A stretch of DNA of 1,595 nucleotides from Escherichia phage ECO95 1-6-1. Shown here in pieces: positions 1 to 1,426 of the stretch; the first letter of the stretch is position 1, and the number at the start of each line of letters is the position of its first letter. The stretch is taken from sequence record OR845813.1; one strand, 5' to 3'. A program made the translations under genes and the position numbers. The notes under the pieces are model-generated. The model saw nothing but the letters and a program-made list of their open reading frames with translations. It had not been told where the DNA came from and searched no databases.

Positions 1-1426
1 CATCAACATTCATGGCACCGGCCACTTTCGTGGACTGCTGCCCGGCGATTTCGGTTTCTTCATTTCCTGTAATACTGGCCAGCCGGTTTCCTTTTACCGC
101 CTGGCTGAAGTCGCCAGCACTGACCTGCTGTATGGCTCCGGCCATCAGCGTGGCGGTACCCAGTACTGTGATTTTATCCGTGGCTTTCACCGTGGTTTCA
201 CGGCTGACCAGTTCGCGCCGTTCCGTGTCGGCTTTCACCGTCCGCGCCATCGATGTTTCACTGATGGTCTGATCCGTCTGGCGTACCCAGTCTCCTGCCT
301 GTGTCACGCGTTGCGATACTTCCGCGCGCTGCTGTTGCAGCTGTTCGCCGGGCTTAATGTCCGGCAGACTGGTGCCATCCGGCAGCGTCTGCCTGATAAA
401 GGGCTTGTCCGGTCTGCCGCCCGTAAACGCCACTTCTACCAGCGTTCCTTCCGGTGGAAACTGGAACATTCCCGAATCGTTACCGGCCATTGGCACCGGC
501 AGCGGTACGGCGGAATATACCGGCGTCTGGTTGTCCGGGTTGCCGTCCGCGTCAAGCAGCTGCACGTCAACAGCGTACCGTGGCCGGAACGGGTCGGCAA
601 AATTACCGCTTTTTACGGCCTCGCTTGGTGCCACTACCCTGGCCAGTTTGGGCAGGTGAAGACCTGAAGCCAGTTCCGGGTAATGGCTTTCTATCTGACG
701 CTGCGCCGGTGTTTTCTGTAATGGCTGACCTGTGGCGCGGTTCCGTGGTGTCCACGTGATGGTCATTGTGTCATTCGTCAGATGAACTTTGGTCACGCGT
801 TCCCCGTTCACGTCCACGCCCGGACGAAGACTCTGGATCACCGGCAATGTCATGGAATTACCGCCCGCCGTTCCCTGGCTGAACTCTGCCGGGATTTCTA
901 CCGGACGTCCGGCAAACAGCGCCTTTTCTGCGCCGCCGACATACAGCGAACCATCCGGCAATGGATACCAGATGTAATCCGTGATACTGAATGCCCTGCC
1001 CAGATTATTCAGCAGCTGGTATCCCGTCCCGTTATGGGTGAAATGGGGGATCGGTTTATCACTGTACGGCACATCCGGTACCGCAATGCTGATCCCGCTG
1101 TTTTCCTCCAGCCATCCGGCCACATCGCGCAGTGTTGGATGCTGGAATGAGCATGGCCACATCCGCTCAAATACGCCAGCCAGCTCGCGGACGAACAGAC
1201 GCTGATAACCGTTTTCGGCAGGCTGTGAGCGCTCCACATAGCCGGTAAACCAGCGCAGAAGTAAACCGGAATACCCCACATCCAGCCGTACCAGTTTGCC
1301 GGTGTAGTCTGTGGTCGTCTGTGCCGTAATAAAGCCACGTCCACAGCTGTTCAGCTCCAGCACCAGACTGGCGTCAGCCAGGTGTATTTCATCCGTTGAA
1401 AGGTAAAGGCGTTTTACTGGTTTCAT
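1..1426 (-). CDS. Large structural protein, partial (C-terminus beyond the left edge of the window); putative phage/prophage tail or baseplate hub/spike-type protein with a C-terminal gp5-like octapeptide beta-helix repeat region. Alternative in-frame start at 1429 (Met-Met).
   Basis: Manual reverse-complement translation from ATG at 1426..1424 gives 475 consecutive sense codons to position 2 with no stop: MKPVKRLYLSTDEIHLADASLVLELNSCGRGFITAQTTTDYTGKLVRLDVGYSGLL ... TDKITVLGTATLMAGAIQQVSAGDFSQAVKGNRLASITGNEETEIAGQQSTKVAGAMNVD. Codon choice is enterobacterial-like and GC3-rich (ctg, ccg, gcc, ggc, cag, acg frequent). AGGT lies 5 nt upstream of the 1426 ATG. The start overlaps the stop of the upstream gene (TAATG). 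Functional call rests only on the C-terminal repeat pattern and gene arrangement, not on a database match. Confidence 0.88.
   Translation of the reverse strand, partial: MKPVKRLYLSTDEIHLADASLVLELNSCGRGFITAQTTTDYTGKLVRLDVGYSGLLLRWFTGYVERSQPAENGYQRLFVRELAGVFERMWPCSFQHPTLRDVAGWLEENSGISIAVPDVPYSDKPIPHFTHNGTGYQLLNNLGRAFSITDYIWYPLPDGSLYVGGAEKALFAGRPVEIPAEFSQGTAGGNSMTLPVIQSLRPGVDVNGERVTKVHLTNDTMTITWTPRNRATGQPLQKTPAQRQIESHYPELASGLHLPKLARVVAPSEAVKSGNFADPFRPRYAVDVQLLDADGNPDNQTPVYSAVPLPVPMAGNDSGMFQFPPEGTLVEVAFTGGRPDKPFIRQTLPDGTSLPDIKPGEQLQQQRAEVSQRVTQAGDWVRQTDQTISETSMARTVKADTERRELVSRETTVKATDKITVLGTATLMAGAIQQVSAGDFSQAVKGNRLASITGNEETEIAGQQSTKVAGAMNVD
2..145 (-). other. Coding region for six tandem octapeptide units (hydrophobic-x-Gly-x5), putative beta-helix segment at the C-terminal side of the large CDS; truncated by the window edge.
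   Basis: Translation of 145..2 on the minus strand parses cleanly into MAGAIQQV / SAGDFSQA / VKGNRLAS / ITGNEETE / IAGQQSTK / VAGAMNVD. Gly is at position 3 in 6 of 6 units and position 1 is V/I/M in 5 of 6. Resembles the VxGxxxxx repeat of T4 gp5-type and VgrG-type beta-helices (established knowledge). Assignment is by pattern only. Confidence 0.45.

Follow-up and report, generated by a model that had tools for sequence, protein, structure and literature searches.

This locus raises the question of what is encoded by a long minus-strand reading frame that carries a regular glycine repeat. The DNA in question is a stretch of 1,595 bases from Escherichia phage ECO95 1-6-1 (record OR845813.1), hereafter the window. 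Its minus strand is coding along the whole length. Translation of this strand gave an open reading frame (ORF) with 476 codons inside the window, from the ATG at positions 1429–1427 to base 2, where the window cuts it short. A preliminary description, made from the window alone, had pointed to six tandem octapeptides in this frame and had proposed a gp5-type beta-helix within a hub-plus-spike or tail-tip protein. The complete ORF, of 567 residues, was read from OR850886.1, the DNA of which is identical to the window (bases 5367–6961, 100% identity). This record, named 'UNVERIFIED_ORG Salmonella phage S.Kent 1-2-1', is a 7.8-kb contig (L002 below). We conclude, with a probability of about 90%, that the ORF encodes the central hub-spike protein of the contractile tail of an HP1-like (Peduoviridae) Salmonella prophage, and that it corresponds to orf35 of phage HP1. 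The window holds the first 476 of the 567 codons. Hub-spike proteins are a known class, and the protein described here is an ordinary, poorly annotated member of it.

We focused on the repeat. Window positions 2–145, minus strand, translate exactly to the six octads that had been described: MAGAIQQV, SAGDFSQA, VKGNRLAS, ITGNEETE, IAGQQSTK and VAGAMNVD. These are canonical units of the VxGxxxxx type and occupy residues 429–476, the core of the predicted beta-helix. Glycine is found at position 3 of all six units, and position 1 is V or I in four of them. There are 428 residues before M429, so the earlier figure of about 427 was right. The repeat had also been expected to continue past the window edge. 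It does so, with one more canonical octad (VGGTLTEK), which supplies a seventh glycine, and three degenerate units in the same register (IAALRKSV, ASGGQQIM and GPTVHIGS). It then stops, at residue 508, so that the continuation amounts to only about four units. Upstream, units that lack the glycine are in register at residues 397 (TVKADTER), 413 (TVKATDKI) and 421 (TVLGTATL). The extended region begins, without glycine, already at about residue 386–397.

The likelihood of such a pattern arising by chance was assessed using P0001, a full-length and near-identical protein in which glycine accounts for 8.8% of residues. Periods from 2 to 20 were considered. The longest glycine run at period 8 was seven (residues 431–479). 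At all other periods the longest run was five or fewer, the five occurring at period 16, itself a multiple of 8. None of 5000 shuffles of P0001 reached a run of six at period 8, for which the analytic expectation is ~3e-4. If each shuffle was scored at whichever of the 19 periods suited it best, six was reached in 10 of the 5000. At the DNA level, Tandem Repeats Finder detected no tandem repeat of period 24, just two unrelated 11-bp repeats. Recent DNA duplication was therefore rejected as the source of the repeat, and the periodicity reflects a constraint on the protein. Separately, the 'TVKA' found at both residue 397 and residue 413 is encoded by an 11-bp direct repeat (CCGTGGCTTTCA-like, window 178–201 and 225–240). 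The two copies, 16 residues or two octads apart, are a slight remnant of unit duplication within the part of the helix without glycine.

The gp5 helix is described as having VxGxxxxx for its hallmark motif (PMC4576200). A phmmer search of PDB sequences aligned residues 413–508 with residues 481–575/576 of T4 gp5, ungapped, at E=3e-8. This part of gp5 is the C-terminal portion of its triple-stranded beta-helix, for which trimeric structures have been solved. In the PDB alignment, glycines 439, 447, 455, 463, 471 and 479 coincide with the VxG glycines of gp5. Among the tblastn matches listed, the helix segment is ~37% identical to gp5 of T4-like phages. A Pfam search with the full protein, the check proposed at the outset, returned Gp5_C (PF06715) at residues 463–485 with 23.3 bits against a cut-off of 20.4. 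This match spans the window edge and hence is lost with the window fragment alone. Gp5_trimer_C was weak on the full-length protein, and a match to PHROG 430 was limited to helix residues 412–475. The proposed gp5-type helix is thus borne out by both in-register homology and a Pfam match above its cut-off. We place the visible part of the needle at window 2–274, minus strand (residues ~386–476), with the remainder running to residue ~508 outside the window. This assignment draws on gp5 homology, the register of the units and an AlphaFold2 (AF2) model.

The AF2 model was built for the full-length protein on an alignment of 51 sequences, with a mean predicted local distance difference test (pLDDT) of 90. 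In it, residues 385–506 run as an extended chain that lacks intrachain partners, at a pLDDT of ~90. A strand that belongs to an intertwined trimer would be expected to look like this. Length variation among relatives was also informative. Indels in the helix measure exactly 8 residues in P0118, and 24 residues in Aeromonas phage A051, Vibrio phage VcP032 and a metagenomic relative (L007). They were noted at about columns 450–480 of a 7-sequence alignment (A1), within L003:8983-10590, within L004:3001-4629 and in P0118. Close homologs form two main length classes, 8 residues apart. Steps of 8 and 24 residues fit a structural unit of 8 residues. The distance from a GEQLQQQ anchor to the C-terminal HxH motif, taken modulo 8, was scattered among distant representatives (the anchor was present in 24 only), but close homologs gave a clean 8-residue step.

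The helix of T4 gp5 (PDB 1K28, 4JIV, 4KU0) thus has the same octads in the same register, and the ungapped likeness covers the last 95 residues of gp5, including its final strand. There are also clear differences. T4 gp5 has a lysozyme domain. Conversely, Pfam and NCBIfam searches found no lysozyme or other catalytic domain in the present protein, in line with the earlier view that it is not an enzyme. The gp5 helix is blunt-ended and capped by a separate PAAR protein, gp5.4, whereas here the chain runs on into a helix-HxH-helix tip. Furthermore, the hub is fused at the N-terminus, unlike in gp5. Estimated from residue counts, the helix has ~14–15 units compared to ~23 in gp5.

Upstream of the helix, the AF2 model consists of a globular domain (residues 1–about 235), short helices (residues 241–255) and a beta domain (residues 261–384). 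Following the extended chain are a helix (residues 513–533), the HxH motif (residues 534–536) and a second helix (residues 545–563). Using Foldseek, we compared the full-length model with the PDB. The best matches were fused hub-spikes of the VgrG type, with ~580–690 aligned columns and E-values from 2e-19 to 2e-11. These were AlgoCIS (7aef_q, 2e-19), VgrG from a type VI secretion system (T6SS; 9jg9, 6e-18), Pvc8, Afp8 and VgrG1. Separate hubs were also found (Mu gp44, 3e-9; pyocin R2 hub, 1e-5; MuSo2; P1), as were spikes that are proteins of their own (P2 gpV, TMt 0.78; Mu gp45, TMt 0.64; pyocin R2 spike). In a viral model library, matching entries were named Tail protein, Phage protein D and 43 kDa tail protein.

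The globular domain is a baseplate-hub module with a fold like that of gp27, gpD and Mu gp44 (window 725–1429, minus strand, assigned from AF2 and Foldseek). When residues 1–245 were modelled alone, pLDDT was 92 and the predicted template modelling score was 0.86. This model matched Mu gp44, MuSo2, the pyocin R2 hub and the hub parts of VgrG, Pvc8 and Afp8 with TMq of 0.60–0.69 and E-values from 1e-12 to 1e-6. Hence, the hub-plus-spike architecture stands, both for the full-length fold and for the N-terminal part. The Phage_GPD and DUF2345 matches that had been anticipated were not obtained with the full-length protein, and the hub module had no Pfam match by sequence; it is recognisable by fold only. 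The hubs Mu gp44, P2 gpD and the pyocin R2 hub, which this module resembles at the fold level, are longer by 50–150 residues. They are also separate proteins, whereas here the module is fused to the spike.

The beta domain is the probable OB-fold domain of the spike (residues ~259–385; window 275–655, minus strand), as assigned by Pfam, the family profile and Foldseek. The Phage_base_V family (PF04717) matched residues 309–345, which equate to window 395–505, at a score just under its cut-off. The same family was matched by 23 of the 51 family members at E<0.01. Other Pfam matches among the 51 were to Gp5_trimer_C (7), DUF2345 (4), Gp5_C (3) and Apex (3). Compared with the PDB, the family profile matched VgrG, gp5, Afp8 and Pvc8 in their OB and helix regions. 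Between hub and spike lies a linker with short helices (residues ~236–258; window 656–724, minus strand). The linker is marked by a dip in pLDDT to 68–72 at residues 231–250. It is also the hub/spike split point in relatives, as seen in stand-alone proteins and in L007.

We next describe the family and its genomic setting. The protein is 40% identical over its full length to HP1 orf35 (NP_043506.1, E=9e-157), named 'baseplate protein' in RefSeq. Residues 2–470 match positions 1–469 of the 544 in the profile of PHROG 2258, also 'baseplate protein', at E=2e-249. On these sequence grounds, the gene is an ortholog of HP1 orf35. The two share the layout of hub, probable OB fold, helix and HxH, and HP1 orf35 occupies the same place, as the last tail-operon gene after orf33 and orf34. 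The HP1 helix is ~31 residues shorter. The gene is likewise last in the tail operon of E. coli prophages, phage A051 (Bielevirus), phage VcP032 (Longwoodvirus K139) and HP1 (Hpunavirus). A051, VcP032, HP1 and the prophages that carry the gene are classed as Peduoviridae. Preceding genes encode the tape measure, a gp25-like protein, baseplate J, gpI, a fibre, a chaperone, an orf33-like protein and HP1_ORF34. Beyond these, the tail operon has no gene annotated as hub or spike. Our literature search on HP1 orf35, ESSI-2 baseplates and phage hub-spike fusions found nothing specific, and no experimentally described structure or function was found for HP1 orf35 or PHROG 2258 proteins. Many genome assemblies of Salmonella enterica encode proteins that are 98–100% identical to it. 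Prophages of Salmonella, E. coli, Enterobacter, Citrobacter and Cronobacter carry the 120 close homologs listed, most of which are named 'hypothetical protein'.

An exhaustive search identified 733 relatives at E<=0.001. Many are proteins of ~300–340 residues that match residues 243–566 only, and several, of ~230 residues, match residues 2–228 only. In L007, a hub gene (4001–4687, 228 aa) and a spike gene (4669–5622, 317 aa) are adjacent and overlapping, right after HP1_ORF34. The L007 spike module is 35% identical to residues 243–558. Hence, the same orthologous unit has a fused form, like VgrG, and a split form, like gpD plus gpV or gp27 plus gp5. The junction between the two falls at the low-confidence linker of the AF2 model. 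Other arrangements were also seen. P0132 (727 aa) has an N-terminal tail-collar fibre domain (PF12571) before its match to residues 180–566, and P0242 (875 aa) has a long C-terminal extension with weak matches to DUF2345 and DUF3540. These additional domains may be true fusions, or artefacts of assembly or gene calling.

The last 59 residues, ESVNTLTMMLDTIDLLAELAQQCASHSHPSVGTPTNAGAFNQTAAKAGQTRSKYQNIIA, are not repeats. They comprise a coiled-coil-like helix, the HxH motif and the second helix. In the first helix, L514, M517, I521, L524, A528 and C531 can be read from the sequence at the a/d spacing of heptads. The motif itself, H534-S-H536, is invariant in A1. In a wider alignment (A2), 43 sequences have a residue at this place, and 39 of them carry the motif. 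In other spikes, a C-terminal HxH marks the Apex domain, three copies of which cage an Fe ion, and such spikes are taken to lack a separate tip protein (bioRxiv 10.1101/2023.02.25.529910). By eye, HSHPSVGTP resembles HKHPGDSGGTTGSP of P2 gpV, with a shared 'HxHP...G.P' motif. Three family members match the Pfam Apex family (PF18946) weakly, at E<=0.01 (best 8.9e-5), and one of them, P0177, scores 17.5 bits, under the cut-off of 20.8. The protein studied here had no Apex match at E<=1. By analogy with P2 gpV, the HxH tip probably holds a metal. Because the Apex family does not match and the flanking helices are unlike the gpV Apex, we infer metal binding and tip geometry by extrapolation.

The spikes with an Fe-loaded Apex, P2 gpV, Mu gp45 and R-pyocin PA0616, have an OB fold and an intertwined helix, both of which are predicted for this protein too, and share its C-terminal HxH. 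In an Apex of the gpV type, six histidines of the trimer coordinate a buried Fe ion. P2 belongs to the same phage family as the HP1-like phages. However, gpV is a separate protein of 211 residues with gpD as a separate hub, whereas the two are fused here. The gpV helix is without the regular VxG octad. In addition, HxH is here followed by ~30 more residues and flanked by predicted helices, unlike in gpV. A sequence relation to gpV was considered and rejected, and we claim likeness at the level of fold and motif only. Two full-length relatives, P0138 and P0142, do not have the helix-HxH tip. Their ends contain Cys (CASICPFTGKPHVDGSTTVFAGK in P0138 and CDFCLITGTPHNQGSPTVFAGD in P0142) and, by sequence, look like a different type of tip on the same hub-spike scaffold.

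These observations suggest a mechanism, which we draw by analogy with T4 gp27-gp5, P2 gpD-gpV, Mu and T6SS VgrG. Briefly, three copies would come together in the middle of the baseplate. Residues 1–235 would form a hub ring that caps the tail tube, and residues ~259–385 an OB-fold collar. Residues ~386–508 of the three chains would wind into a triple-stranded beta-helix. Each octad would be one strand of a triangular prism, with the glycine of position 3 at a tight corner and the V or I of position 1 directed into the core. The last 59 residues (helix, HxH, helix) would close and sharpen the tip, where a metal ion would probably be bound by the three HxH copies, like that of P2 gpV. With such a metal tip built in, a separate tip protein of the PAAR type would be unneeded. 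Contraction of the sheath would then push the rigid needle, with the tube behind it, across the outer membrane of the host. For ~14 units per chain, scaling from the geometry of gp5 gives an estimated needle length of ~65–70 Å.

Several points weigh against this interpretation. Known hubs have 285–390 residues, compared with ~235 in the present module (TMt about 0.5). The hub may lack a part, or the two proteins encoded upstream may supply it. By sequence, Phage_GPD, DUF2345 and Apex give no match to this protein, Phage_base_V scores 22.8–23.1 bits, just under its cut-off of 23.8, and scores for the VgrG TIGRFAMs are far under theirs. The predicted tip is two helices flanking HxH, unlike the small, beta-structured Apex of gpV, and hhalign of the family profile against P2 gpV gave a probability of 1%. 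The AF2 model is of a monomer, in which the helix region is without partners, so that the trimer and its intertwined geometry are read into it from known spikes. Finally, the gap to the HP1 ortholog measured by BLASTP, 31 residues, is not a multiple of 8.

There is also a more far-reaching reading, which we consider possible but doubtful. The protein would be an all-in-one hub, spike and tip, with a tip unlike the solved Apex. A coiled coil of three heptads would lead into an HxH cage, and the second helix would fold back to give a trimer of hairpins. The tip would have been grafted onto a helix that, over its last 95 residues, shares ~37% identity with T4 gp5, the PAAR-binding strand of T4 included. 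Such a graft on a gp5-like helix would point to exchange of modules between T4-like and HP1-like phages. Similarly, with fused and split forms in one orthologous family, the family would capture, within phages, a fusion of the kind that leads from gp27 plus gp5 to VgrG.

The remaining alternatives concern the identity of the protein itself. It could be a peripheral tail fibre or tailspike, with a triple beta-helix shaft and HxH metal sites, instead of the central spike. Both features are known in receptor-binding fibres too (bioRxiv 10.1101/2023.02.25.529910), and the N-terminal domain of the P22 tailspike gave a weak profile match (E=0.07). That match is not significant, and the operon has a separate tail-collar fibre gene with its assembly chaperone upstream. 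The N-terminal module has a hub fold, after which comes a probable OB fold of the kind typical of central spikes, and the operon has no other annotated candidate for hub or spike. A peripheral fibre is therefore improbable.

Slightly less credible still is a VgrG spike of a bacterial type VI secretion system, which we regard as very unlikely. The VgrG proteins 9jg9, 8gra and 4mtk are among the best full-length fold matches. In addition, the family profile matches the OB and helix region of VgrG, and homolog P0113 is named 'valine-glycine repeat' in the database. However, the gene lies in a phage tail operon of Peduoviridae phages and prophages, beside genes for the tape measure, baseplate J, gpI, a tail fibre and lysis, and no T6SS genes are nearby. 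The VgrG families TIGR01646 and TIGR03361 score 16.8 bits against a cut-off of 121.8 and 14.6 against 186.35, respectively. More broadly, the VgrG-like hub-spikes (T6SS VgrG and, from extracellular contractile injection systems, Afp8, Pvc8 and AlgoCIS Alg8) have a hub of ~380 residues, compared to ~235 here, and the present protein does not belong with them at the sequence level. It also ends in an HxH tip in place of the blunt end on which PAAR docks. The least plausible view, and one to which we give almost no weight, is that the glycine periodicity is a product of chance or composition, or belongs to another repeat fold, for instance a left-handed beta-helix of hexapeptides or pentapeptides in a single chain. 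In its favour, the window shows no more than six units and the window-only Pfam helix match is weak (Gp5_trimer_C, E=0.12). However, no shuffle reached six at period 8, the period is 8 and not 5 or 6, homology to the solved gp5 helix holds residue by residue, and relatives differ by indels in units of 8 and 24 residues.

Thus, the central hub-spike protein is the favoured identity, and we turn to its neighbours. The remainder of the window (1429–1595, minus strand) is the 3' end of a gene for a baseplate complex protein of the HP1_ORF34 type (ORF L002:4988-5533, 181 aa; PF25759, E=3e-54; PHROG 1398). Before it is the orf33-like gene (L002:4252-5016, 254 aa; PHROG 1677). Both genes are kept next to the spike gene in all relatives examined. 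Neither protein had a sequence match in the PDB or an informative PHROG function. They may complete the unusually small hub. On the minus strand, the TAA stop of the HP1_ORF34-type gene (1431–1429) and the ATG of the spike gene share one base (TAATG). Because of this overlap, the two genes are probably translationally coupled. A second in-frame ATG is present at window 1426–1424, minus strand, just after the start codon. ORFs on the plus strand were rejected as genes, being shadows of the minus-strand gene. Scanning the window, we found no promoter-like sites, and terminator-like sites were at chance level. Outside the window, immediately after the spike stop codon, a GC-rich stem-loop with a T-run resembles an intrinsic terminator (L002:7243-7272), and GC content falls from ~0.57 to 0.42 past the spike gene (L002:7200-7841). 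Judged by sequence features, the prophage tail operon seems to end here. Record OR850886.1, the only DNA match at 100%, carries the flag UNVERIFIED_ORG and was submitted as a portion of a Salmonella phage. The contig could be a piece of a prophage from the propagation host rather than of the isolated phage.

The finding opens no new biological question. Its practical gain is in annotation; close homologs that are now a 'hypothetical protein' can be named central hub-spike proteins. The family provides a compact natural example in which hub, spike and probable tip are in one chain. Since relatives split exactly at the hub/spike boundary and vary in helix length by steps of 8 residues, the family would be a tidy system for the tuning of spike length and tip type, and for the origin of VgrG-like fusions.

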